From assembly GCF_033153115.1 (NCBI RefSeq), contig NW_026889750.1, positions 26,598,001-26,662,000 of the forward strand: a DNA stretch of 64,000 nt, in the 5' to 3' direction. Of the stretch, positions 15,230-33,574 are shown one piece after another. Source of the stretch: Saccostrea echinata. Lineage: Eukaryota. Position numbers and translations under genes: made by a program. Below the pieces are notes generated by a model. The model saw only the letters and a program-made list of their open reading frames with translations, searched no databases and was not told the origin of the DNA. How positions within the stretch are numbered: position 1 is the stretch's first letter; every line of letters starts with the position of its first letter.

Positions 15230-15566
15230 ACAAGAATGTAATAACTCATCAAAGTAAAGTCACATACCAAAAATCAGCACAGTACCTGCAATCGTTTAGA
15301 AGAAAATTGCGGAAAACCCTGAAAAATTGAAAAGGTCGTAATTCCGTCAAAAAGCACTGAAGAACAAAATGCAAACTTGATCTGTAACTCATTAAGATAC
15401 ACTCACATGCCAAAAATCAGCTCAATATCTGCACGCGTTTAGAAAAAAACGTGCGGAAAACCAAGTGGGACAGACTGACAGACAGACAGAGGGACAGCTG
15501 AATAGACGGACGGACAGACTCGGAGGAAACCTATAGTCCCCTCCGGTTTCACCGGTAGGGGACGAA
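15230..15566 (-). mobile_element. Helentron-type non-autonomous element (HINE), copy 1, 3'-truncated
   Basis: Reverse complement of the 15624 copy: gtcccctaccggtgaaaccggaggggactatagg head plus a GTCY microsatellite. Confidence 0.7.
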
Positions 15567-15623
15567 AAGGCGTAAACTGTTCCAACCCACGTTGTACCAG
15601 TATAACTTGGGTAACTATTAAAT

Positions 15624-16076
15624 TTATTAGTTCCCTACCGGTGAAACCGGAGGGGACTATAGGTTTCCTCCGAGTCTGTCCGTCCGTCTGTCTGTCTATC
15701 TGTCCCTCTGTTAGTCTGTCCCACTTGGTTTTCCGCACTTTTTTCCTAAACGCTTGCAGATCTTGAGCTGATTTTGGTATGTGAGTGTATCTTGATGAGT
15801 TACAGATCAAGTTTGCATTTCGTTTCGCTTCATTGATTTTTGAGAGAATTACGGCCTTTTCAAGTTTTAGGGGTTTTCCGCAATTTTCTTCTAAACGCTT
15901 TCAGACATTGAGCTGATTTTTGATATGTGACTTTACCTTGATTAGTTATAGATTAAGATTGCATTTCGTCCCGCTTCATTGACTTTTGACGGAATTATGG
16001 TATTTTCAATTCTTAACGGGAACCAGATTACACTTGCCGGTAGGGGACTAATATTGCTAATGCAATACTCTCAGAT
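15624..16076 (+). mobile_element. HINE copy 2, same family
   Basis: Head hairpin, (GTCY)n, two internal repeat units, 3' subTIR ccggtaggggac and hairpin attgctaatgcaat. Confidence 0.75.
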
Positions 16077-16187
16077 CCCATCATTAAGTATAGTAAATAA
16101 AACAATTTCTCCTTGAAGAATGCCTTCAAATTGTACATGTTTTAAAAGTAACGTCACGAATTGTTACGTTTTTGACGATATGAACTA

Positions 16188-17073
16188 ATTTTTAGTCCCC
16201 TAACGGTAAAACCGGAGGGGACTATAGGTTTCCTCTGAGTCTGTCCGTCCGTCTGTCTGTCTGTCCCACTTGGTTTTCAGCATTTTTTTTCTCTATGCTT
16301 TTGAGAATTGATTTGAAACTTGCTATGTACCTTTATAGTGATAAACTACAGATCAAGTTTGAATTTTATCATGTTTAACAAATAGGTTCTAGAGTAAATC
16401 AGTTTTAAACATTCCTCTTTTTTATAATAGTTCAAGATCGGGTTGGTGCTGCACTATTTTAATGTTACAAAACGAGGTTGTCAGGTTTAAAATTATTGAT
16501 TTCAAATTTGCTAGGTAGCTTTATAGTGACAAACTATAGATCAAGTTTTAAGCATTCCTCTTTTTAAAATCGGGTTCAAGATCAGGTTCGTGCTGCACTA
16601 AAATGTTCTAAAAACGAGTTTGTCGATTGTGACAGAAGACGGTAAAGTAATATTGTGCATTGTTTTCCACAATTCCTACCAGCGAATACTTAATATACTT
16701 GGCAAAATAGTAGCAGATGCAAAAAAGACTGAATATTTTCCCCGATTTGAATGTTTTTATATCCCTATTTATGTATAAGTTAAAGCCAGAGATTTTTTAT
16801 CGGGTGTTAAATGCCAGGTTAGGAAAAACGAGTAACGTAAGCAATTGTCGTGTTATTCATACATTATGTGATTTTAGTCAAACACGTCTTTGTAAGACAG
16901 ATTTCATTCCAACATTTCATTCATAAGCAAGTAATCCGAAATATCCACATTTGGGGTAGGGGTGGGGCACAGTTATCATATACAGGGTCTTATAAAATGA
17001 CATCCTAAAAAGAAATGGGATACCGGTAGGGGATATGTACTGCTTATGCAATACTCTCAGAATGCTTGCTTTT
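16188..17073 (+). mobile_element. HINE copy 3, same family, different internal sequence
   Basis: Same head, and a 3' end of accggtagggga...tgcttatgcaatactctcagaatgcttg. Confidence 0.75.
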
Positions 17074-17460
17074 ATCCAAGTAAAAAGGCGTTACAATAAA
17101 AAATAAATTATTAATTATTGAATTATTTGAAATTCATATACAGAGTACACGACAATTAAATTGTTGTGTTATCATTTTATGAATTTATAATAATTGAATG
17201 ATTATACAACCAACCAATTTTTCACCCATTACACATAGCCAATATACGTTCCGACAAAAATCTTGATTGGTTACAAAAGAACACTCAAACAATTATCTTG
17301 AAACGGAAACATCGCAGAGATACTGTCTGCTACTGATACTTCACATAGAATGTTGTTTCATTCTAAATGTTCAAAACATCTTCCTAGAGCAAACATGTCC
17401 TAAAAACATCATGTGTGAAATACCTCCCAAACTGAGTCATGTTTTGAAAAATCTTTGATA

Positions 17461-18286
17461 TATGGTGTTCCGTTGGGGCCACTCGCACCTTCGCACTCTC
17501 GCCTTTAGGGCGAAGATGCGAGAGTGCGAAGTGGCGAAGGCGAAAGTGCGAAGGCGAGAAAGTGCGAAGATGCAAAGGTGCGAGGGCGAAGGTGCGAAGT
17601 AGAAGGAGCGATCCTAGTTTCGCTCCTTCGCATTCTCGCCCTCACACCTTCGCACTTTCGCCTTCGCCTTTTTTGTGGAGTTCTCTATCGTTTGAAGATA
17701 ATTTTATTTATAAAAATGGCGTCTGCAGAAGAAGATGAACTATTCAGTCTGTTGCGAATATATTTCCAGCAAGGATTTTCGCATAATGAAATTCGAATGT
17801 TATCGTATTTAAACCACGGTATTGAATTAAGGTATGCTATTTAAGAAAAGTCCCAGGAGTCTTGAAGTGCACACACATATAGTGGGCATTACGTTTTAAA
17901 ATATAGAGTTACATAATCATGATAATGTTCAAGCCTAGTTTTACACTTGTTAACAGGTTGAAAGATATGTCAGATAACCCTGTAAAATATTAATGAATTT
18001 TTAATAATTAACTGATAGTAAGCACGACATAATGTTGCTTACCATCCATTTTGGCGCCGTCACACTAATCTAGCGCATGCGTACCAATAACATCCAAGAG
18101 CCCATTAAAATTAACTCATAACGACAAAGAGCTCCATAGTAGTAAAATGCGAAGGCGAAAGTGCGAAGGCGAAAGTGCGATATTAGTATCGCTCCTTCGC
18201 CTTCGCTCCTTCGCCTTTGCACTCTCGCATCTTCGCCCTAGAGACGAAGAGTGCGAAGGTGTGAGTGGCCCCAACGGAACACCATA
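17461..18286. mobile_element. Internally deleted IS3EU-like DNA transposon
   Basis: TIRs tatggtgttccgttggggccactc(g/a)caccttcgcactct; TAY..RTA ends; subterminal gcgaaggcgaaagt repeats; first exon MASAEEDELFSLLRIYFQQGFSHNEIRMLSYLNHGIEL (17716-17831) followed by GT. TSD not resolved. Confidence 0.65.
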
Positions 18287-18651
18287 TATATATATATGAT
18301 TATTCTAATAAATAGCATGCTCATAGTAAATCAGCTATAAATTATAATCATAAAAATCAGTTTAATTTTATTGTTAGATAAGCTGAACTTGTTCCAATTA
18401 CTAGTTACTGTAATTCAATCGCAACTTTATATAAACAGATTTAATATGAAGTACAAACTGTTAAAACGCTAAAAGACCATTATTTAACAAGTGTTTTATC
18501 CGATACCTTTTTGCAAAAAATTGTTGAACAGGTTTGCAACAAGTATTACAGTGTACATGTATTTCGCTAGTGGTATTATATGTATGGTGCCATACTTATG
18601 TCCCCCATGCAAGTTTTTTTTTTCCACGAATACTATCAATATGCAAGATAT

Positions 18652-19688
18652 TGTTACGAAATTCATTTCTTCACGTTGTGTATTTAAACCAGTTGATCAC
18701 TCGCAGCGTATAAATAGTGTACTATCCAGTCGTTGTTTTCATTAGATTAATATGTATAGTAACAATATAACACGTGCTATGTTTGTTATCAAATAATCGG
18801 TAAATAGTTGTAAAATATATTGATTATATGCTGTCAATCGTATATTATTATTTTGAGTCGGGTTCACTGTTTTTCGACCCGGTCTCGATCTCGATAGCAT
18901 GTTTAATTTGAAGTTATTTATCACGTTTCATCTAGGAACATTTCATTGTCATTGTTTATATCAACTTAATAAAGTAATAGCTACTTGTACTTATCAAATT
19001 TTGGAAGATAAAATCCCATTTTGTATGGTTATTAATGATTCTCCATTAGAAAACTTCACTGCGTGCACTTTCCCTGATTTGTTTATTCCGGAAGTGGCGT
19101 AGGGTCGTTTCGGATCAGTGATTGGTTAATTGAAGTAACCAGTCGGTACAGTAAGAGTATATAATCAGCGGAAAATTCATCTGCTAGGAGGAGAAAGGGG
19201 GGAGAGAAATTCGGAAAGCAGAAGCTGAGAAGCATCTCCCATATACACCCTATTACTAGGGATGGCTACACAAAGCAGATGGGTAAAATTTATATTACAC
19301 TTAGTTACATTATATTTAGATATATAGGCGCTGAGATATCCCTGTGGGAGGCCCATAAGTAGAGCTGGGAGACCCATCGACGGGAAAACGTATGGGAGGA
19401 TCTATGGGAGTTACATTTTATTAATAACAGTATAAAGGGCTTATAAATTAGGTATCAACAAAATATTAAATTAAAGAAAATATATTTTCAGTACAAGTAG
19501 CTAGTTTTTATAATCATTTGAGGAGATTTAGATTATTCATACGGGTTGTGGGAGTGACATATTTTCAAGGTGTCAGATATTGTGATTTTTATTATTACAA
19601 TAGTCATATCAAATTGTACATAGTGTAAATCAATCTTATTTGTTGAACTTTTATCCTGACTTAAATATTCATTCCAAATAAAGTTAAC
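18652..19688 (+). repeat. 5' LTR of the Gypsy element, missing its last ~60 bp
   Basis: Matches the 3' LTR up to ...aaataaagttaac, then runs straight into gag-like sequence. Confidence 0.9.
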
Positions 19689-21186
19689 AAGTTTTTAGTC
19701 CCACTGTATCCGTCATGGAAAAACGGGAAAGAAGGTATCTCAGCAGCCATCTCTCCCATACCTGAAAATGCAAGTGTTTCATTAGTTAGAATTTTACAAG
19801 AGCAATTTTCTAGTGAATTTGCGAAGATGAACCAAAAGATAGGAGAGCAATTTGTAAGCATTAGGGAAGAAATTGATAGGAAGTTAGAGAATATGCAAGA
19901 AGAAATTTTAAAGTTTAAACATGAATCCAAGAATTTATGGGAACAGGATCAAGTAAGGGTAAAATGTGCCCATATAAATGACAGACCCCCGTATCAAATG
20001 CCATTACATGTAGGTTATGAAAATTTAAGGGAAAATCGGAACCCAAGCTCGTTCAACCATTATAGAGTGGGAGGAGCTAATGGGATGAATAGAGGGATTA
20101 TTGATGATCAATATAACCTTACGGGTGACCTCCCTCAAATTAGTAGGAAAGATTCAAGGTCAAGGTCAGGGATGGGAGATTACCATCAGTTACCCAATAT
20201 GACCAGATTTAGCACCCCTGATCAAAATGAGAATAGGAATATGTTAACGCCCACTGGGGATCCCCCCCAGGGAAAAAGCCAAACCCAGGATATTTGATGG
20301 GAATGAGGACTTTGACGACTATCTCTCACAGTTTGAGATAGTTGACGACCTTAATAATTGGGATTATAGAACCAAATCTTTACAGTTAGCGGGTCATTTA
20401 GCTAAAGATGCATGTGGTTTGTTGGGAGAGTTGAGCCCAGATCAGAGAAGGGATTATGGTACCCTGATAACGGCATTAGAAAGACGTTTTGGGGCGACAG
20501 AAAGATCTGAGATGTTTAGAGCAAAATTAAAAACCCGGGAAAGGGGTAAAAATATGAGCATCTCCGAACTAGCTCAGGCAATAAAGAAATGACCCAGGCA
20601 AGCCTATCCCAGTGCTGAGCCAAGTCTCACTTACTTAATGTGTTAGCATTAGATCAGTTTATAGATGCGTTACCAGATCCCGACATTAGGCTGCGCCTTA
20701 GGGAGGCCCGACCTAGGGATATTAGTGAAGCAGAAACTCTTGCAATAAGGTTAGAAACTTATAGGTTGGCAGATACACAGAAATGTTCAAACAATGTAAA
20801 TGCCATAGATTCTAGTGGGAGTAAAAACACCCATGATTCATTGACAAAGTTATTAGGAAGATTGAATGAGAACATAGAAAGGTTGGAAAAAGCAACCAGT
20901 AGACAGAATCCCAGCCCACTTATTAAAAGGGGAAATTGGGAAAAATGTAAATCAGAGAAATAACCAGAGAGATTTTGGTTGGAGATTCCAAAAATCTAAT
21001 TATAATGGCCCAAACCATAGGAGGGAAAATGGGAGTAGCTATTCTTGGAAAAATCAAAATGGGACTGCCTCAAACCAAAGTCCCAAACAGGGAAATTCAA
21101 GCACTTGTAAACAACAGGGAAACTGTCCCGTGTCGACTTCGTGGGTAGGAAATCGGCAAACATTAAGGGGAGGCCCACTCCATAAG
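19689..21186 (+). pseudogene. gag: gag, frameshifted and 5'-deleted
   Basis: Capsid-like motifs FDGNEDFDDYLSQFEIV..LNNWD and LALDQFIDALPDPDIRLRLREARPRDISEA spread over broken frames. Confidence 0.8.
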
Positions 21187-21197
21187 AAGTAATTGAA

Positions 21198-24100
21198 ATG
21201 AAACCCCAGAAAAATGAAACAAAGTGTCAAAAAATTGTTAGTGATTCAAAGGTTAATGATATGTTTTTGACCTCAAATGAGGGAAATGAGAGTGAAAAGG
21301 TTGAGAGGGACAAGGGTGAAAACTCTGTCCCAAAAGAAACCCTTACTCAGGCAACAAAAGTAGTTATTCATAATGCAAGCAAAATTAAATCAGGTATTTT
21401 TGTTCCCACACAAATCAATGGGAAAGAATGTAGATTTTTAGTAGATTCTAGGGCAGATGTTACCATTATTAGCACCCGTTTTTTAGAGAAATGTTTGGAT
21501 GGGGAAGCACCTTTCTTAGAACTATGATGTGAAACTAGTCTCTGCTACAGGGGACCCAATACCAAATAGTGGGAAATGTGAAGTCCATTTCAAAATGGGG
21601 AAAAATGAAATCACCCACAAAGTGATAGAAGCTGATATTAGGTACAGTGGTATCTTAGGTTTAGACTTCATGACTGAACATTCATGTGATATATTAGTTC
21701 AAAAGATGCAGTTTACGTGTTAAGAGTCAGGAAATCCCTTGTTTAGATTTAGTAGTGATGAGGTAGATTGTACATTTAGAGTTGCATTAATGGAGGACGT
21801 GAAAGTACCTCCCAACTCAGAATTTATTGCCCGAGGTAGAATATTAGATTCTATTCCTAAATGGGATGAGGCATTGGTAGAGCCAAATATAGAATTTATG
21901 GGTAAACATGAAGTGCTAGTGGCTAGAGCACTTGTTAACCCCACATCTGGGACAATCCCATTGAAAGTCATGAATGTGTCAGATAGGGAAATTAAACTCT
22001 ATAAACATAGTCTTATGGGAGCAATGGAGAAAGTCTCTATGTTTAGAGATGACATTTTAACTGATTCAGAAATCAGCTTGGTAGAAATACCCCATTAATT
22101 TACCAGAACTTCTGAAAAATTTGTATGAAGAGTCATGTATTGGGATAACCGAAATTGAAAAAGTACAATTAAAGGATTTACTTGTAAAGTATCAGGGTTG
22201 TTTTTCTAAAGATTCAGAAGATATGGGACTTACAAATATGGCAGAGCATAGAATATATACTGGGAATAGTAGACCCATTGAGCAAGCCCCTAGAAGAATC
22301 CCTCTTGCTAAAATGCAAGATGTTACTAGAGAAATAAAAGAAATGTTAGCTAAGGTAGTGATTGAAGAATCAGATAGTTCCTGGAGCTCCCCAATAGTTC
22401 TAGTTAAAAAGAAAGATGACTCAATTAAGTTTTGTATAGACTTTAGAAAACTCAGTGAAGTTACTTTAAAGGATAGTCACCCTATTCCTAGGATAGAGTC
22501 AATCTTAGATGCCCTCTCGGGAACAAAATACTACTCGACTTTTGATTTGAAAAGTGGATATTTGCAGGTTAAGGTAGCAGATGAAGATAAACCCAAAACA
22601 GCGTTCTCAATTCCGGGGGGGGGGGGTCATTGGAATTTCACCGTCATGCCAGTTGGTTTGTGCAATGCACGTGCCGCCTTCCAAAGGCTGATGGAAAAAG
22701 TACTCTCTCATTTATCATGCGAAATTTGTATGGTATATCTTGACGACATAATTGTCTTAGCCCCCGACTTTTCCCAACACCTAAGGAACTTAGAAAAAGT
22801 GTTTAGTAGATTACAGCATGCAAACCTTAAAATCAACCCTAAAAAGTGTAAGCTTTTAGAGAGGGAAGTGGCATACTTGGGACATATTATAAGTGAACAG
22901 GGAATAAAAACCGACCGTGACAAAATTGATGCGGTCCAAGATTGGCCCATACCTAAGAATGTTAGGGAAAGAGGGACAATATGTGATAGATATGGATGCC
23001 TCAAATACAGGCATGGGGTCTGTCCTATCACAAATCCAAGATGGAGAAGAAAAGGTCATATGTTATTATAGTAAACTATTTAACATGGCTTAACGCCGAT
23101 ATTGTGTGACTAGACGGGAATTGTTAGCTATTGTTCAATCCATCAAACACTTCCACCATTATCTTTAAAGACAAGTATTTAAAATAACAGACCATGGTTC
23201 GTTACGATGGCTTTTGAAATTTAAAAATCCCGAAAGACAAATAGCTCGTTGGTTACAGACACTAGCTTCTTACCAATCTGAAATAGAGCACAGGCCAGGT
23301 CGCTTACATGGGAACGCGGATGCTTTATCCCGTAGACCTTGAGCTGATGTAGAGTGCACATACTGTGCTAAGGCAGAGGTAAAATACTTACCTGAACAAC
23401 TCGTACAGAAATGTTCCATTGTTGAAACTAGTTATTGGCACCTACAAATAATGAAGATAAAAGTAACATAGGAAATTTTGATGTAGGAAAATATCAAAGA
23501 GGAGACCCAGATTTAACACGTTATTAAATTTGGTACAAAATGGGACTCGGCCCAATTAGGGAGATATATCCCATTTAAGTAAAACTTGCAAATTTTATTG
23601 GGTAAGATTTGAATCTTTAGAATACAGACACAATATTCTATATTACGTTCATGATGGGTTGGATAAGAAATATTGTATTGTGATCCCAAAAGTTTTAGTG
23701 GGAGAAGCTTTGACCCTGTTAAATAACAGTACTACAGGAGGTCATTTAGGTATTAAAAAGACCCTATTCAAAGTAAGGGAAAGACATTTTGGTACAAAAT
23801 GAGTAGTGATACAAAACATTGGTGTGTAACATGCGACATTTGTGAATCTAGAAAATCCCCTAATAGGAGAATATTCCCCACTTCAAAAATATGTGGTTGG
23901 CGCTCCTCTTGAAAGGGTGGCAATTGACATTATGGGACCATTACCCAAGTCCAATAAGGGAAACCTCTACATATTAGTTATGGGCGATTATTTTACAAAA
24001 TGGGTGAATGCAGTTTCCATACGTAATCAGAAAGCCACAACAGTAGCTCAAAAGTTAATTGATAGAATAGCTAACATTTTTGGAACGCCCATGCAAATCC

Positions 24101-24765
24101 ATAGCGATCAGGGAAGATCATTTGAGTCAGATGTATTTAGGGAAATGTGTAGAATACTTGGGATTGAGAAAACCCGAACCTCACCATATAGACCTCAATC
24201 AGATGGTTTAGTAGAGCGTGCAAACAGAACAATAGAAAATATGTTAGCATCATTTGTCTCCCAAAATCAAAAAGATTGGGATGAACATTTATCCTTACTC
24301 ATGTTAGCTTATAGGTCCGCCCAGCATGAGGCGACTGGTGTGAGTCCATGTGAGATGATGCTTGGTAGGCATGTTTCTCCCCCAGCTGCTATAGTATTGG
24401 GAAGGCTACAACCTGAAAATACATTACAAATGTCAGAGTATGCTTACATATTGTCTCAAACTATGGATAAAATACATGAGTTTGCTAGGGATAAAATAAA
24501 GTTAGCTACAGAGAAAATGTTAAGAGAATACAACTCAAAAATAAATTTTCAAAAGTTATGAAGAGGGGGAGCTTGTGTGTTACTATACCCATAACCTTAA
24601 TAAAATGGGATCGCCAAAGCTCCAATGTTATTGATCAGGACCATACTTAATTTTGAAAAGAATCAATGATGTTGTATACAAAATAAGAAAAACAACGAAA
24701 AGCAAACCCAAGGTCGTGCACTATAATCTGTTGAAGCCTTACAAAGGAATTAATAGACCCAATTA
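21198..24765 (+). pseudogene. pol: pol (protease, RT, RNase H, integrase) with stops, frameshifts and a deletion
   Basis: PR FLVDSRADVTII; RT SSPIVLVKKKD, FDLKSGY, YLDDII; RH DASNTGMGSVLSQ, TRRELLA, NADALSR; IN GGHLG..C..C, AIDIMGP, IHSDQGRSFES, GLVERANR, and a GPY..VVHYNLLKPY tail. Confidence 0.95.
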
Positions 24766-24910
24766 GTTATATGGGAAAAATATTTAGCCTAGAGTTTATT
24801 AAATAATTTATCTTAAAATTTATTATGTCATTTTCTGCAGTTTTATTTATTCCCATGTTTGATATTCTTGAATATCATCACAGAATAAGGGACTAAGTAT
24901 CACTTTACAG

Positions 24911-26010
24911 GTTCAGAGGTTTAGATGTGGACTGTGTGAGTGCGAACGAGAGTTTACCAAGCAGAGCCACTGCGAGAGGCATATGACGGCCGTTCACTCA
25001 GGCTTTGTTTTTAAATGCTCGTCATGTGGAATGATACTGGACCGCAAGGACCAGAATCACGGGTGTGAGGCAGGACCCTGCAGAGAGTGAAGAAGACCAC
25101 ATTAACACTCACCCTGGAGGAGGAGAAGGAATTTGAGGTGTTCCAGCGAGGGAGGGGGAGGCACGGTAGAACCTTTAATGAGGGAGCCCCCCTGGCCTTC
25201 AGCGATCAGCCGTACCATCCCAGCCAGGCTAAGAGGAGGGCACATTCAAGAAACCGAGAAAGGGAGGAAGCAAGCAGAGATGCCCACCCCGGTGCCACCA
25301 CCCTTGCCTTCTGAAAGGAACAATCCGCTTTGCAGAACCCCATCCCGCCAGTTGATGTAGTCAGCATGAGTAAGACGCAGGATACACCAGCTTCCACCCA
25401 TGAGTCACCACACAAGAGCCAATTAACACCAGAGGCAAGGAAGTCATACAAGCGACTTTTTGGCGACACACTCAGCTATTCGGAGGATGAAGAGGCCCTT
25501 CTATCCCCAGATGTATCAATAACGGAACCCCCAGTGACGTCCACACCCATTCGTTCAGTAACGACCACCACTGAAAGGGAGTTTGATAAGAAGGACGCCA
25601 CAGTACAAGCATCTCTTCCCTGCTATTTGTTCCATCCAGCTACGATGCCACAGGATCGAGTAGGCTTGGATGTTGGGGGGAGGCTGTTTGTGACAACTCG
25701 AGCCACTCTGAGGAATCAACCAGATTCACTGTTCTTCAACATGATGGAGGACCCTGCTATCGTACACGCTAAGCGATAGTGGAACCTTGATGTGTATTTC
25801 ATAGACAGAGAATCTACATATTTCGATACCATTCTTCACTTTCTCAGAGACGGGGCCAAAAACATAAACTGTCATTTACCTAGTGATACCAAAACCCTAC
25901 GGAAAATCCATATTGAAGCAGTGTATTACAAGTAAGAGACTTTGGCGGATATAATCGGTAGCCATATGTTCGTGATGATCATGGGCCACAAAGTGTTCCA
26001 GGAAGAATGA
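24911..26010 (+). pseudogene. Extra ORF inside the Gypsy element: C2H2 zinc finger(s), P/S/T-rich linker and KCTD/T1-type BTB/POZ domain (disrupted)
   Basis: From 24911: FRCGLCECEREFTKQSHCERHMTAVH-SG-FVFKCSSCGMILDRKDQNHGC. 25657-25960: RVGLDVGGRLFVTTRATLRNQPDSLF..YFIDRESTYFDTILHFLRDG..LP..LRKIHIEAVYYK*ETLADII, which reads in one frame through two stops (25777, 25933). Confidence 0.85.
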
Positions 26011-27007
26011 CTGTTAGTGAGTAATGTATAATGTTTATTTTGAATAATGTCCATAATTTTGTAATTTTGCATTTGTTTATATATGAACATGTGTAATTAT
26101 CTGATGTTTAGTTTATGGTAACAGAATTATTAGTATTCGAGATGTACATGTAAAGCCTATTAGATTCCAATTGATTTTGTATTTGTTGTTATTAATATAT
26201 GGATACTTGAGAGTAGTGGAAGTGATATTGCTAATTCTTTTGTACATTGCCAAACATGTATCATTATGTTATAAAAAGATTAGCCTTGAATATGACCTCG
26301 AGTTAAGAGTGATACAATTGGTTACCATTTTTTTCATTAATGTTATTTGTTGTTCATTTTATGCATACATGTCATTGTACATATACATTGCATCGTTGTC
26401 GTTGATTTATACTTACTTGTATATAGCTGCAAGTGATGATCTAAGTAGGCCCATGTCCAGTTACATTCGGGACGAATGTTTTCTTCAGGATGGGGCTATG
26501 TTACGAAATTCATTTCTTCACGTTGTGTATTTAAACCAGTTGATCACTCGCTGCGTATACATAGTGTACTATCCAGTCGGTGTTTACATTAGATTAATAT
26601 GTATAGTAACAATATAACACGTGCTATGTTTGTTATTAAATAATCGGTAGTTGTAAAAGATATTGATTATATGCTGTCAATCGTATATTATTATTTTGAG
26701 TCGGGTTCACTGTTTTTCGACCCGGTCTCGATCTCGATAGCATGTTAAATTTGAAGTCATTTATCACGATTCGTCTATGAACATTTCATTGTCATTGTTT
26801 ATATCACCTTAATAAAGTAATAGCTACTTGTACTTATCGCATTTTGGAAGATAAAATCCCATTTTGTATGGTTATTAATGATTCTCCATTAGAAAACTTC
26901 ACTGCGTGCACTTTCCCTGATTTGTTTATTCCGGAAGTAGCGTAGGGTCGTTTCGGGTCAGCGATTGGTTAATTGAGGTAACCAGTGGGTACAGTAAGAG
27001 TATATAA

Positions 27008-30000
27008 GGCCAACCTTTTTTTATTTCCTGTTTTACGGGAGCGCCGACCCTAATTTGAGCCAAAATCAAATAAAAATAAAAGTGTCTAATTCATGTTTTA
27101 ATTTTATTTCTTCCGCCGAAATCTTACAGACGAATATTCAAAAAATAAATAAAACCTTTTTTTCCACTCGGCATACCTCGACCGATTCGTACCTTATCTA
27201 TGAAGGCAACGAAATCATCCAGCTTTGTCGAATGTAAAGGTTTTTCTAATTGGCTGACATCAATTCACTTATCCAGTCAAAGAAGTCGTAACATATATTG
27301 ATAGTAAAGGCCAGTAACTCTAATTCAAAGTATGGATAGTTCGGATAGCGCCAAAATGTCAACATCGCCAAGATCGGAGAGTTGTGAATATTTTAAAATA
27401 GTCACTATTAACGGTGAAACATCGAAGTCATCGATAAGAAAGATCCATTTTAGTTTAACTATTAATGATGTAGTTAATGAAATAGACGACACCGTGATTT
27501 TGCAAAACTGTTATGCAGAGGGCCATGTGGCAGTTGACGGCTCTATGAATTTCCACGTCTTGAAAGATTTTGGGTATGTATGATCTTTAGGATTATCTTT
27601 TTATGAATTTAAGTTTAACACAAATTATTTTATTAAGAAATTACGATTGAACTGTACGGAGTAGCGTGACAGAGGAAATTCTTTCCTTCGTTAAAGACGA
27701 GAATGACGATTGAAAATTATTTGGATTAGATCTATTATCTTGAAGTTAAAATTATTGTAAATAAATCGTCTCTAATAATAAGGTGTAAATATTAAAATAG
27801 TTGTAGAACAGTGACTCTGTATGTCAAGTCCATACATGACACCAAAAAGGAATCCAGAATCGGGTCATCCTCCATTTTTGATGTTCTGATGAAGGCCTCC
27901 AGAACCTACGAATACTTTCCCCAACTGAGGTTTGTTATTCAATATTCATTTTTTAAATAGGAGTGAGTGCATATTAAAATAAGTTTTAATATTTTAGGTA
28001 AAAAAAAAATATGGAGTTTTATTAATAATTATTGCACGGCCATGTTACATTGAACTTGAAACTAGCTAGATGTCGATTCTAAAGCTAAAACATTGTTTTT
28101 AAATAGAACTCCAAATAATAAAAAAGATGAACTCTTTAATCACACTGTTGCATGGATGAAAGAAAACAAGTGGGGTTTTACATCACAACAGGTGTCATCA
28201 CTTGGTAAACATGTAGTTTCAACACTGACAGAGGCCCTTTGGTTCCTTCACCCATTCTAGGAGAGGTTTAAATCCAGGGGAATTGATATTCCCAAACCAT
28301 TGAATCCTATGACTGGGTATCGAGATTTGAAAAATCAAAAGAAGAAAACGCCTCAGGTACTATTCTTTTAAAACAAAATTATATATACAAGTTTTCAGTC
28401 TTTAACAATTCTGACAAAAATTATAAATATATTTTACAATGTACTTTTTAAAAAATATTTTAAGCTTTCTTGTGAAGAATTGAAGAACAACTGTGAGAAA
28501 ATTTCCGAATTATTGCTGGTCCCTTGGATGAATGCCGAAAATAATAAAAAAAATTCAAGACTATTATTGAAGAGCTGGTATCGCAAATATCCAAATACGT
28601 CACTTTTTTGAATAGAATGAATGAGAGAACCCAGAAAAATCATGAAAAAACAGAACCTGTGAGGGATTTTAAAGACAATTGGGAATTGAAAACTATATCA
28701 TCTCATAGTTTGGGTTCTTCTACTCATCCAGACTATCTTGCAATTGACAAAGCATTAGAAGAAGAACCATTTTATAAAGTGGTTGATTCAATTAACTTTG
28801 AACCTACTGACAAAGAATTAAGAAGAACGTGGATCAAGAACTTAGTTGTGTCATCAACTATAAATCTATTCTCTTATGTAGATATGGAAATTATCTGGGT
28901 AATATTAACCTTGTTTGGAAGATTCCCTCTGAAGGGAAAACCGTGATCCTGCAGAAGTCGCTAGAAACATAAACTTAATAAAAGAAAATGTATTAAAATT
29001 TGCAACACGTCGCATGAGAAAAGATTTCATTAATTTATATCATTGGAAGTGTAAAATACAGCAAGTGATTCTAAGAAGCATGTTTGACTTTCTGACTGAT
29101 TTTGAACCTCCTACTACAAACCAAAAAGAGGCAGTAAGTAATGGATGAAAGATTTTTGAGATATCTTGTAGAACTGGATGACCCTGATGTAATTTTTGAC
29201 TTAAGAAAACATAATGGAAGGCCAAATGATCCCAAATTTGAACCTTTCTGGGAGGGTTTGGATAAATTACTTCAGGAGAAATCAGCTGTGCATGAACGTA
29301 GACAACAATGTGCAGTATTTACGATTTGCAATGTCAGTGTAAGATTTGAGAGAGCAAGTTATGGAGAAGTTACCACCTGGGTCATCTGCTCCATCAGTTT
29401 CATGGATTCGGCTCAATTTTCATCCTAAGAACCCTTATCTTAAAAGTGCAGCACAATATACAGGAAAATTCAATTTGAAGTATTCAGTTCAGCAAAGGTT
29501 ACTCAGGGTACAACACATGGATTCAGACTACTGCAGACAACAGTTCTCACTGCTTAAATCCTTTGCTGTGAAATGGAAGGACTTAAGCATTTTTCAGAGT
29601 TTGGATGACAAGGCCATTGTGCCTTTTGGAAATCCAGAACAACCAGTTTCCACTGGTGTTCGATCACATCATGGAGCAATTGTGGCAAATGAAAATAGAG
29701 TTGTTGCACTGGATCATGACTTCGTCATAGTGCTGAAACAGTGAAGATAGTGCGCAACTATTTTTCCGAGGATGATGTTAACTGTCAGTTTCCTATTGTT
29801 ATTCGCTACACTGATGGAGGGCCTGACCATCGCACCACATTTAAAGGTGTGCAGATGTCATGTCTATTCGAATTTATTGCTTTGGATCTGGACATGTTGG
29901 TAGCAGCCCGTACTGCACCAGCACAAAGTTACCACAACCCTGCTGAACGTGTTATGAGTACCCTAAATTTAGGACTACAGAATGTGGCCCTGGAAAGAAC

Positions 30001-31173
30001 AAAAATGCGTGCAGAGTTTGAAATGCAAGCAAAGTCTCTCAACAGTTTAAAAGCTATTCGTAATGCTACAAAGAGAAATGAGGGACTCAAGAGAGCATTT
30101 TCAGAGTCGATGGATTATCCCTTGTCTATTGTCTATTGATTTGGAAGACTGAAGTGGACAGGAGAAAAATTAATGTTCATGAGGGAGCTTCAGAGGATGA
30201 ACTTAGTGAGTTGAGCAGACTACTCCAGGTCATAGATCCATTGGTAAATTTTGAGGATCAGAAAACATGGAATTCTTTAAAGCTACAGAAATTCATGGAG
30301 AACCATTGTCAGAAAAGGCACTACATGTTCAAGGTATTTTTTGTTTAAAAGTAATATACATTGATGCATCCTGATATGAAAATTATTTTAGTTGAATGTA
30401 TGATAATATCTGAATTACTTAATTGAAATAACTATAGTGACATAATGCTACAATAATTTTTTCCTGTTAGATCAAGAAATGTACTTCAGATCAGTGCGCA
30501 TATTGCATCCTTTGTCCACCAAGAATCCCATTGGATGTCTTTAAGAATCTTCACTTTGTGCCCGATCCTGTGCTGGAAAATGACACCTACCTGGATTTTG
30601 AGAAGATCTATGGTACCAATACAGAAGAAGTGGCCAGACCTAGTGCACAAAAAGCACCAGAAAAATCTGAGAGGGACAAAAAGTTCAAGGCAATTCTAGT
30701 CGCAAGTATGTGTCCAACATGTCCAACTTATAATATATGACAAATTTCAAACATATAATTTTATTATCATTTATAAATAGATTAAATAAAATTACATTGA
30801 TAAAAAGGTCTTGCGACCTGTGAAAACTAGAAATGCAAAAAAAAAAAAAAACAAAAACAAAAAAAAAAAAAAAACAAAGAGGAGAAAGTGAAATTTTAAT
30901 AGAAACAGTTTATCATCATAAATCTCATTTAAAAAATTGCTGTACATCAAAGTTTATTCTTTTCAGATTTTTTCTATGAAATTTTAGGTAATGAAAAACA
31001 AAATTCCATCCAAAATAAGAAATAAAATTTTTAAACACAATTTTTTATTTTATTTTTATTTTTCTGACCGACTGCTTGAATTTGAAACTTTTATTTTTAT
31101 TTTTATTTCGACCCCCCGACTGAATTTTGAAAAAAAAAATCCCGTAAAACAGAAAATAAAAAAAATGTTGGCC
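27008..31173 (+). mobile_element. Zator-type DNA transposon, decayed autonomous copy
   Basis: ~33-bp TIRs ggccaac..tttttattt(c/t)ctgttttacggga and a TAA TSD (27005-07, 31174-76). Confidence 0.85.
27332..30706 (+). pseudogene. Intron-containing Zator-like DDE transposase, disrupted
   Basis: Motifs SLDDKAIVPFG, ALDHDF, YTDGGPDH and ARTAPAQSYHNPAERVMSTLNLGL; C-terminal C-rich region; GT/AG introns (e.g. 30334-30470). Confidence 0.8.
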
Positions 31174-33574
31174 TAAGCAGCGGAAAATTCGTCTGCTAGG
31201 AGGAGAAAGGGGGGAGAGAAATTCGGAAAGCAGAAACCGAGAAGCATCTCCCATATACACCCTATTACTAGGGATGGCTACACAACGCAGATGGGTAATT
31301 ATATTACACTTAGTTAAATTATATTAAGATATGTAGGCGCTGAGATATCCCTGTGGGAGGCCCATAAGTAGAGTTGGGAGACCCATCGACGGGAAAACGT
31401 ATGGGAGGATCTATAGGAGTTACATTTTATTAATAACAGTATAAAGGTCTTATAAATTAGGTATCAACAGAATATCAAATTAAAGAAAATATATTTTCAG
31501 TACAAGTAACTAGTTTTTATAATTATTTTGGAAAATTTAGATTATTCATACGGGTTGTGGGAGTGACATATTTTTAAGGTGTCAGATATTGCGCTTTTTA
31601 TTATTACAATAGTCATATCAAATTGTACATAGTGTAAATAAATCTTATTTGTTGAACTTTTTTCCTGACTTAACTATTCATTCCAAATAAAGTTAACGTA
31701 CGGGAGTGGAAAGCCCACAAAGTTGCCCCACTCTCTCCCGAGGTGGGAGACGCAACAATATAATAGGTCAACATTAAACTTATTTAATATGTATAATAGT
31801 TAACTTGCAACATATAAAGCATTAAACAATTTAAGTCCTTCAAAAAATGTGACCAGATATAGCATGATATTTGAAAAATGAATCTAAATTGTGGTTACAT
31901 GCACTTTGTGATAATGTAGTAAACATGCAACTTATGTTGGCATCACATTAAGGCATGTCAGCATACAACTTATTTATGTAACTTGTCTTGCAAATAAATT
32001 ATGTTAAATATGCAAATCATACACTGTATGTCGACCTGTAACAAATGTGTCAACACGTCAAGATTATTTGTACATCCAAGATATTTAATAACTTTTGGAG
32101 TAAAACATGGCAAACTTTTATATAAAAAATAATTGGAATATATCACAGGTTTTTTTCCCCTGAAATTTGAATGTGCACTGTATTGTTAAAGTGTGTAAAT
32201 CAAAAATGTTGAAAAAGAATATTACGCATAACATGTGAATGTGAAATGCAGGATCCCGATTTATCTCGTGCTTTTCTTCCTAATTTGGTGTACTTACTTC
32301 ATTTCCATATTATTACGTGTAGCTTTATTTTAGTTCTTAATTTTCACAATTCTGCTACAATAAAACTATAAAGTATATTGAATATGGGCAGAATTATCCT
32401 TGGCCTACAGGTTGATCAAAATAATTTTCAAGTTGATGCAATAAGTTGGAGGTAGCGTGATTTTCCTACATATCAACATGCTACCAAGTAAATAACTTGT
32501 TTGTCGATACCACATGGTAACACTGAAACATAGCATGATAATAAAATTAATATATCAAAACTGACCTTCAATACAGCATAACCAATTTATTCCAAAGAAT
32601 AAAAAGAGCAAAGGTACTCAGTCTAATTACAATAATGAGCTATTAACAGTTGTGCGAGAAGTTCAATATCTTTGAATACTTTTATCTAGAAAAATAAATT
32701 TTGATTGGCAAAAACTCTAAAAACAGGTAAGAAATGTTTATGCAATGCAAGATAAACATGTTTACCACTAGATATATTATTGCCTATTAGCTACTATGTC
32801 TGACCAAATTCTTTATTATGGATCTAAAGTATAGGGTTCTGTAAACAAGTTCTCCATATAATTTATAATAAGGTGTACACTTTTTAAACTTTCAGAACTA
32901 TAATTGTAGTGGTATTCCAACAAAATCTTCCTTCAACCCATTTATGCCTCTGCGTAAATAAAAAAAAGTTTTGAAATTTCGACAGAAAACTTTCCTTACA
33001 TTTGCAGTGTGTATAAGGTAAAAAAATATTCAAAATTATAAAGAATAAGTGTCACGTAGAGAAAAAGAATGAATTCAAAATTCTTGTAGTGGTTAAACAC
33101 AGTAATTATCATTAATAATTCTACGATGGGAGTTCTGAGTGGTTTTCTTACCGTAAAAAATGCTAAAAATTAATTATTCATGTACAGTGCACTGTATGGC
33201 AATTATTAATTGTAATCAGTTTTTTAAAAAAATGTAAGTAATGAACACAAGTTCTTGCTTGAGATTTGCAGAGAGATGATCGAATTTCTTTCCAAATTTC
33301 TCTATTACTCTTTTTTGTTAAGGAATTTTGCGTCTGTTTTATAAAGAGTTTCCTTAATCTAAATCAAAATACAAGGAATGATCATTGAGAGAGGTAGTTT
33401 TGACTTGATGTACAAAATTTTCTTTCAAGTGTTTTTAAATGCTTTTATTATTAGATGGATCATAGGAGCTTTACTTATTAAAGATTATTTATTTTCGAGA
33501 AATTTATATTTTATAAAATTAAAGTGTAAATATTGATCTTATCTATTTCATTTTTGACATTGAATTTATTAATT

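Follow-up and report, generated by a model that had tools for sequence, protein, structure and literature searches.

Mollusc Ty3/Gypsy retrotransposons carry, between pol and the 3' LTR, an accessory gene that encodes an N-terminal zinc-finger domain together with a BTB domain of the KCTD/T1 type at the C-terminus. This gene is real, conserved and widespread, and one broken copy of it lies in the window, the 64,000-nucleotide stretch of Saccostrea echinata DNA (contig NW_026889750.1) analysed here. An earlier reading of the window, made from its letters alone and hereafter designated as the sequence-only reading, had already proposed an element-encoded accessory gene in the env position. To this picture are now added a splice acceptor in front of the gene, a predicted coding mini-exon in the LTR, relatives of the gene that lack the BTB, and young sister elements from which the gene is missing altogether. 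On the basis of sequence, structural models and analogy, the product is tentatively read as an oligomeric, DNA-binding self-regulator of the element that would act in trans, with a probability of about 0.45.

The literature searched, which comprised few subscription papers and had Repbase, Dfam and GyDB outside its scope, yielded no description of such a finger-BTB gene from Gypsy elements, and novelty is thus probable rather than proven. Likewise, in the available portions of two surveys of LTR elements in molluscs and annelids, the terms "BTB" and "zinc" were absent from PMC8556966 and the term "ORF" from PMC6238403.

The element in the window and its accessory ORF

The Ty3/Gypsy element spans positions 18652-31757 and has the tetranucleotide ATAT on either side as a 4-bp target-site duplication (TSD); 4-bp TSDs likewise flank eight of its relatives (Table 1). 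Its LTR termini read TGTTAC...CAACA, and its internal part follows the order gag, protease (PR), reverse transcriptase (RT), RNase H (RH) and integrase (IN), with RT and integrase assigned by Pfam. In an intact relative (L098), gag gives weak matches to Retrotrans_gag and SCAN. By comparison with the C43 copy, the 5' LTR region has suffered a deletion of about 242 bp that removed the final ca. 60 bp of the LTR, the primer-binding site (PBS) and part of the leader; the PBS is present in all four sister copies shown. The 3' LTR is interrupted by a DNA transposon of 4166 bp, inserted at the TATA-like site of the LTR, which had no Pfam match and which, from its motifs, we take to be Zator-like. 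Elsewhere in the window, clusters of inverted and direct repeats (15241-16581 and 17458-18289) resemble nested small non-autonomous elements, and a tRNA-Ser(aga) was called by ARAGORN at 56466-56556.

Table 1. Features of the Ty3/Gypsy element, with positions counted from the first letter of the window
Feature	Position	Strand	Remarks
5' TSD ATAT	18648..18651	+	repeated at 31758-31761
5' LTR, truncated	18652..19688	+	95-96% identity to 3' LTR
Predicted first coding exon in the LTR (MATQSRW, 7 codons)	19262..19282	+	phase-0 donor GT at 19283
gag, broken by frameshifts and stops	19716..20963	+	–
pol (protease, RT, RNase H, integrase), broken	21186..24767	+	RVT_1 E 4e-33; rve E 1.5e-16
Pyrimidine-rich tract and AG splice acceptor, abutting the ORF	24890..24910	+	AG in 9/9 listed
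N-terminal zinc-finger domain	24911..25200	+	C2H2-like finger, H-S-G link, C2HC-type second finger, helix; frameshifted near 25066-25069
Linker, basic then S/T/P-rich, predicted disordered	25201..25650	+	KRLFG motif; frameshifts; stop 25312
KCTD/T1-type BTB (PF02214), C-terminal	25651..26010	+	in-frame stops 25777, 25933
Polypurine tract (PPT)	26487..26498	+	–
3' LTR, first part	26499..27007	+	–
Nested DNA transposon, 4166 bp	27008..31173	+	GGCCAAC inverted ends, TAA duplication
3' LTR, second part	31174..31757	+	second copy of mini-exon and donor; ends CA, then TSD ATAT

The sequence-only reading had described a sense ORF remnant between integrase and the PPT, inside the LTR and TSD limits, and the coordinates agree: the ORF (24911-26010) starts behind the end of integrase (ca. 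24767) and stops short of the PPT. This copy is indeed broken, by frameshifts in the finger domain and the linker and by three in-frame stops. When its two stops were read as X, the BTB reached 57.2 bits on the Pfam profile BTB_2 (cut-off 21.4) and covered profile positions 1-89 of 94; the same Pfam check failed for the finger, which remained at 15.1 bits under a zf-C2H2 cut-off of 25.2. The GC content of the ORF is 0.498 versus 0.38 for IN and RT, as had been surmised by eye. This offset from pol recurred in all six other elements measured, and GC3 also differs from that of pol.

Distribution, inheritance and loss of the gene

A DNA search of the S. echinata genome returned 11 matches at eight places. 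Seven of these are copies of the window's own Gypsy family (the window and six sisters), each with the ORF between integrase and the 3' LTR/PPT. The ORF is broken in all seven, a deletion having removed the BTB from one of the six sisters; at the eighth place there is a BTB remnant, and the DNA retrieved around it contains no pol. A protein search gave 108 matches, of which 20 of the more distant ones were read in their genomic context. The finger domain was present at 17 of these loci, the other three being host KCTD genes with a BTB only. RT and IN lie directly upstream at 16 of the 17 finger loci, and the remaining one has an IN tail. Altogether, a related ORF occupies the same site in about eight further lineages of this genome, and it is fully open in 13 copies from five lineages (252-428 codons from stop to stop). 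An intact ORF, which the earlier reading had proposed to look for among sister copies, was found in other lineages and in no copy of the window's family. The one-off insertion that it had considered as an alternative is rejected, since the segment is kept both in sister copies and in other lineages. A locus that might have passed for a replicating gene-only element (L122) lacks support as such: the LTR upstream of it is incomplete and lies directly against an inverted LTR, and a PBS is missing. Accessory ORFs of this kind account for much of the weaker BTB_2 signal in the genome.

In an integrase tree (51 rows, FastTree, midpoint root), elements with finger and BTB, elements with the finger only and gene-less sisters fall on one side of a branch with a support of 95. 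The tree of the finger domain roughly parallels it, and RT identity between gene-bearing lineages is 52-66%. A tree test for a single origin of the element BTBs gave a p-AU of 0.068. The finger-only relatives (L136, L138 and L139, with L136 and L138 in Gypsy elements, and proteins P0030-P0032, P0035 and P0037) are ca. 200-230 aa long; their own Met follows an acceptor-like AG, and in place of the BTB they end in a short conserved motif. Among 31 more distant Gypsy loci (L249-L279), weak matches to the finger profile follow pol in 22, none with a BTB, while a sense ORF of at least 170 aa follows pol in 24; these ORFs are BTB-free and belong to several unrelated types rich in Cys and His. To judge from these loci, accessory genes with zinc fingers seem to be a general feature of this Gypsy group.

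Organism names, looked up for 26 homologous proteins, extend the range of the gene to oysters, mussels, a scallop and a snail. Homologues with both finger and BTB came from Saccostrea, Crassostrea/Magallana, Mytilus, Pecten and Gigantopelta, and a Mercenaria gene model has the finger only. Naturally intact homologues include the RefSeq models XP_078324263 and XP_062606823. Beyond the S. echinata genome, linkage to Gypsy is suggested by gene models in which parts of pol are fused to the ORF (P0116, P0217, P0151 and P0207) or an integrase tail is joined to the BTB (P0008), together with two metagenome contigs (L161 and L163) that have IN ahead of the finger. A motif scan of metagenomes gave 21 matches, which comprised three clear members, one weak member and a remainder due to chance; the single match in viral contigs was also by chance. 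In the source databases, these homologues are filed as host genes under names such as "uncharacterized", "potassium channel regulatory protein" or "trichohyalin-like".

Substitution rates were estimated by the Nei-Gojobori method on natural in-frame stretches. Between the window and its sisters, dN was 0.10 for the finger and 0.15-0.18 for the BTB with dS saturated, and amino-acid identity was 70-83% despite this saturation. The linker had a dN/dS ratio of 0.18, and one finger pair without saturation had a ratio of 0.08; in one recent pair of BTBs, both from broken copies, the ratio was 0.39, near the RT control of 0.32. These comparisons support purifying selection on the accessory gene, and a neutral remnant, the outcome that would have told against the sequence-only reading, is rejected by the low dN combined with saturated dS. 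Family-wide inheritance and selection together uphold the earlier view of a gene encoded by the element. Since dS is saturated in the ORF yet low in IN (0.32) and RT (0.19), both unsaturated in the comparison of the window with sisters L005 and L006, the accessory cassette has probably been swapped between Gypsy subfamilies.

Ten sister loci are devoid of the accessory gene (L243-L248 and L287; L240-L242), although in pol they are nearly identical to gene-bearing elements, with up to 98.6% identity at the DNA level. Five of them have LTR pairs that are 99.85-99.92% identical, and the gene was lost at least twice among young sisters. In the L104-type family, gene-less copies outnumber gene-bearing ones (7 versus 3 examined). 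The accessory gene is thus needless in cis, and because young sisters multiply without it, it either acts in trans or is optional.

Predicted protein and predicted message

The conserved ligands of finger 1 are C-x2-C-x3-5-F-x8-H-x4-H, followed by S-G. The canonical C-x4-C finger of the sequence-only reading was not recovered, its third Cys being unconserved, and the second finger proved to be far from degenerate: the cysteines of its C-x2-C ... H-x1-3-C pattern are near-invariant (55-56 of 56 alignment rows). Across the proteins scanned, finger 1 scored 15.1-16.2 bits, below the Pfam zf-C2H2 cut-off of 25.2. BTB_2 reached 45-68 bits in all nine BTB-bearing proteins scanned, with no match to PF00651, the BTB of the ZBTB class, and every full-length member in the alignment has its BTB at the C-terminus. 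For intact homologues, AF2 models built on a 57-row alignment predict a confident finger domain (residues 8-102, pLDDT 93-97), a disordered linker and a confident BTB.

The modelled finger domain had no fold match at E<=0.001 in PDB or BFVD. Its best Foldseek match is weak (E 0.16, prob 0.89, 41 columns) and falls on C2H2 fingers; for the finger in VIA, the values were Z 5.5 and rmsd 1.4 with 42 aligned residues, with Z 4.0-4.5 for DNA-bound fingers, and the weak matches include the fingers of Kaiso and ZBTB7A. The top-ranking folds are thus DNA-binding fingers, if only at weak scores. Given its position below the Pfam cut-off and this lack of a fold match, the domain could bind RNA or protein. 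In the helix of finger 1, R occurs at +6 in 17 of 18 sequences, and positions -1, +2 and +3 differ by family, a pattern that is no more than suggestive of a family-specific reader. Basic clusters C-terminal of the finger were seen in the alignment in most members, and the net charge of the finger domain is positive in 11 of 12 proteins. An [RK]RLF motif, presumably cyclin-docking-like, occurs in only 4 of 26 linkers, three of the four being close kin.

Ahead of the finger the ORF lacks a start codon, and it begins immediately behind the pyrimidine-rich AG, which abuts the first codon in all nine copies or families listed. A candidate first exon lies in the LTR, where an ATG and six further codons are followed by a phase-0 GT. 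An ATG with an in-phase donor was present in 16 of the 20 family LTRs in which the region was located, out of 26 examined. Equivalent exons in the other lineages checked read MSGSESRW, MTLQEQGSEEFRW, MEPQEPIRM, MDNSDPERM and MSQQQLFQPDHPAPK, and the LTR of L110 offers a weaker candidate only. Three independent gene models start with such an exon. The N-terminus of the RefSeq model P0001, MADPMQTRW, matches the LTR exons MADLMQTRW and MATQSRW; the start of P0093, MSQLQLFQPDLPATK, matches the L104 LTR exon, MSQQQLFQPDHPAPK being the LTR exon that corresponds to this model; and P0010 has a short first exon where P0018, from the same cluster, instead reads into the intron frame. In the AF2 model, exon-1 residues R8-W9 open strand 1. 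From these gene models and sequence signals, the ORF is likely expressed by splicing from the LTR mini-exon. With a donor upstream of the PBS, the spliced message would lack the PBS. In unspliced RNA, the LTR ATG gives an upstream ORF of 13-23 codons in the five elements checked. The mini-exon is kept in all six gene-less L104-type LTRs and lost only in L241 and L242; exon and gene are thus but loosely coupled, and a loss of the mini-exon with every loss of the gene is not general (two of nine only).

Assembled contigs, from runs of which none is recorded as RNA, were inspected at L098. No sense LTR-to-acceptor joint was present in any of the four runs, which consist of contigs with the RNA type guessed and in which absence is not demonstrable. 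Two contigs of run X5 leave the L098 LTR exactly at the predicted donor (3234) and continue into non-element sequence; these may be chimeric transcripts started by the LTR.

In runs X2 and X3, the contigs that overlie the L098 ORF show splicing on the opposite strand. Within L098:3663-10000 and the 3' LTR, CT..AC joints (3851/6500, 6600/7282, 7435/8383, 8501/8850 and 9721/9810) outline an antisense transcript, spliced from several exons, that spans most of the accessory ORF. Such joints came from all four runs (two studies, RNA type guessed), with individual joints varying by run, and the X2 and X3 contigs continue past the end of the LTR into non-element sequence. In the big exon, antisense frames reach 136 aa at most. 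This transcript could be a host silencing precursor or an antisense RNA of the LTR.

Resemblances to known systems and possible roles

The retroviral accessory proteins include Tas and Vif. A spliced or separate gene with likely action in trans, on the element or against host defence, is common to the present gene and to accessory proteins of the Tat/Tas/Vif type (partly PMC7264820, in excerpt), and an accessory gene with likely action in trans is also found in the VANC anti-silencing proteins of VANDAL DNA transposons (PMC13547354, in excerpt). No sequence or fold relation to either was shown, however; the element class differs, and a function in our case is only proposed. The extra ORFs of Ty3/Gypsy elements between pol and the 3' LTR, env-like and others, as described in the accessible part of PMC7264820, have the same position and sense, a likely spliced message and presence in most copies of a family. 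The present ORF differs from them by its finger and BTB content, by a start codon and donor inside the LTR, upstream of the PBS, and by the lack of a hydrophobic segment. An env gene is rejected by the absence of transmembrane-like hydropathy in all 12 intact proteins (top 19-residue values 0.27-1.38), and the sequence-only reading was right that the gene is not env-like despite its env position.

With KCTD5, 9, 10, 13 and 17 (PMC5664961 and PMC10856315, both in excerpt), the product shares the BTB_2/T1 domain by Pfam, sequence and fold. KCTD proteins have an N-terminal BTB and then a C-terminal domain, whereas here an element-encoded BTB stands at the C-terminus, behind a finger domain and a disordered linker. 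KCTD1 isoform b likewise links a transposon to a KCTD BTB, through a Crypton-derived N-terminal domain placed before it; in the excerpted account, however, KCTD1b is a fixed domesticated host gene (PMC3212892), and here the BTB travels in active LTR elements. ZBTB and insect BTB-zinc-finger regulators combine zinc fingers and a BTB in one chain, as here, but in the reverse order, with another BTB class; moreover, the present protein has only two fingers, the second of which is not C2H2. Identity with ZBTB is rejected on the passing BTB_2 score, the missing PF00651 match and the reversed order, in line with what had been noted from the letters.

In the self-regulator reading, the ATG mini-exon of the 5' LTR would be spliced to the acceptor before the ORF, as the gene models suggest, and the basic clusters would direct the product to the nucleus. 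There, the finger domain, to judge from its fold, may bind the element's own DNA. By analogy with KCTD proteins, the BTB would oligomerise the protein, and its ring would chiefly serve to raise the avidity of a short finger domain; the beta1-beta2 hairpin, which builds KCTD rings (PMC5664961, in excerpt), is conserved in the alignment of element BTBs. The protein would then regulate transcription of the element in trans, probably as an activator or anti-silencer rather than a repressor, with recruitment of CUL3 as a possible added function. A trans-acting DNA-binding regulator is favoured since the finger is the constant part and the gene is needless in cis. Gene-less young sisters are as expected of a product acting in trans, and they fit plain dispensability equally well.

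Retroviral Vif/Vpx and poxviral BTB proteins work through cullins. A doubtful but serious alternative is that the BTB ring binds host CUL3, with the finger selecting a silencing or restriction factor of the host to be degraded, or with the ring titrating CUL3. It would be consistent with action in trans, and the N-terminal exons of host CUL3 were found in the genome. The nearest host BTBs (L205 and L207, 33-45% identity to the element BTBs) carry the motif MFSGRH, which we take to be that of KCTD7. Among solved structures, the best sequence matches of the element BTB are the CUL3-binding KCTD5 and KCTD9, and most KCTDs tested bind CUL3 as 5:5 complexes (PMC5664961, in excerpt). By fold, however, the matches are KCTD structures at a TM to target of about 0.8, among which the non-binders KCTD1, 15 and 16 rank equal, and finger-only relatives persist without any BTB. 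In human KCTD BTBs, the alpha2-beta3 loop contacts CUL3 and decides binding (PMC10856315, in excerpt). Across element BTBs, this loop varies from about 4 to 16 residues, often with a proline, which leans against CUL3 binding as a universal role. It is similarly doubtful, although conceivable, that an element-encoded, sequence-specific zinc-finger adaptor, started from a coding exon in the LTR and equipped with a captured KCTD ring, brings CUL3 to element chromatin and removes silencers there, with gene-less sisters exploiting it in trans; if this were true, animal Gypsy elements would possess a broad, so far undescribed group of accessory genes with zinc fingers, of which the present gene is the BTB-armed member.

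It is rather unlikely that the protein is a self-limiting repressor or an insulator-like factor that dampens or shields the element and spares the host, with gene-less sisters as escapers. The great youth of the gene-less L104 sisters and their excess over gene-bearing copies would agree with such a role, as would repression by KCTD1 through its BTB (PMC3212892, in excerpt) and the host-encoded finger-plus-BTB insulator complexes that act on Drosophila gypsy (PMC4935592 and PMC3383448, in excerpt). Gene-bearing families are equally young, however: of the 17 finger loci, 14 yielded an LTR pair, and 10 of these pairs are at least 99.4% identical. Retention over lineages as divergent as those compared above by RT is also more readily understood if the element profits from the gene.

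More improbable still is that the protein serves the particle or the pre-integration complex, in RNA export, entry into the nucleus or tethering to target sites, instead of acting at the promoter. The basic clusters, the positive charge of the finger domain and the production of retroviral helpers from a subgenomic spliced message (PMC7264820, in excerpt) would suit it, but the TSDs of eight young elements differ, and gene-less sisters still integrate. Finally, a captured host fragment carried as a passenger without function for the element has very little left in its favour: its GC and GC3 unlike pol, its repeated loss in young sisters and its decay in the window's family are outweighed by 13 open copies, by retention across bivalves and a gastropod, by the absence, at the 17 finger loci whose surroundings were inspected, of any stand-alone host gene of the same architecture and, above all, by saturated dS with conserved protein sequence, which largely refutes it.

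Extra genes of animal Gypsy elements are mostly regarded as env, and here numerous families with recent activity carry a conserved gene of non-env, regulatory type that ranges from oysters as far as a snail, exists in naturally open copies and has a message structure that can be tested. The gene may give access to the ways in which LTR elements of animals oppose or adjust silencing, comparable to VANC for plant DNA transposons. There are also consequences for annotation, in which element ORFs masquerade as host genes under unrelated names, and the LTR exon with its ATG and donor can also start chimeric host transcripts.
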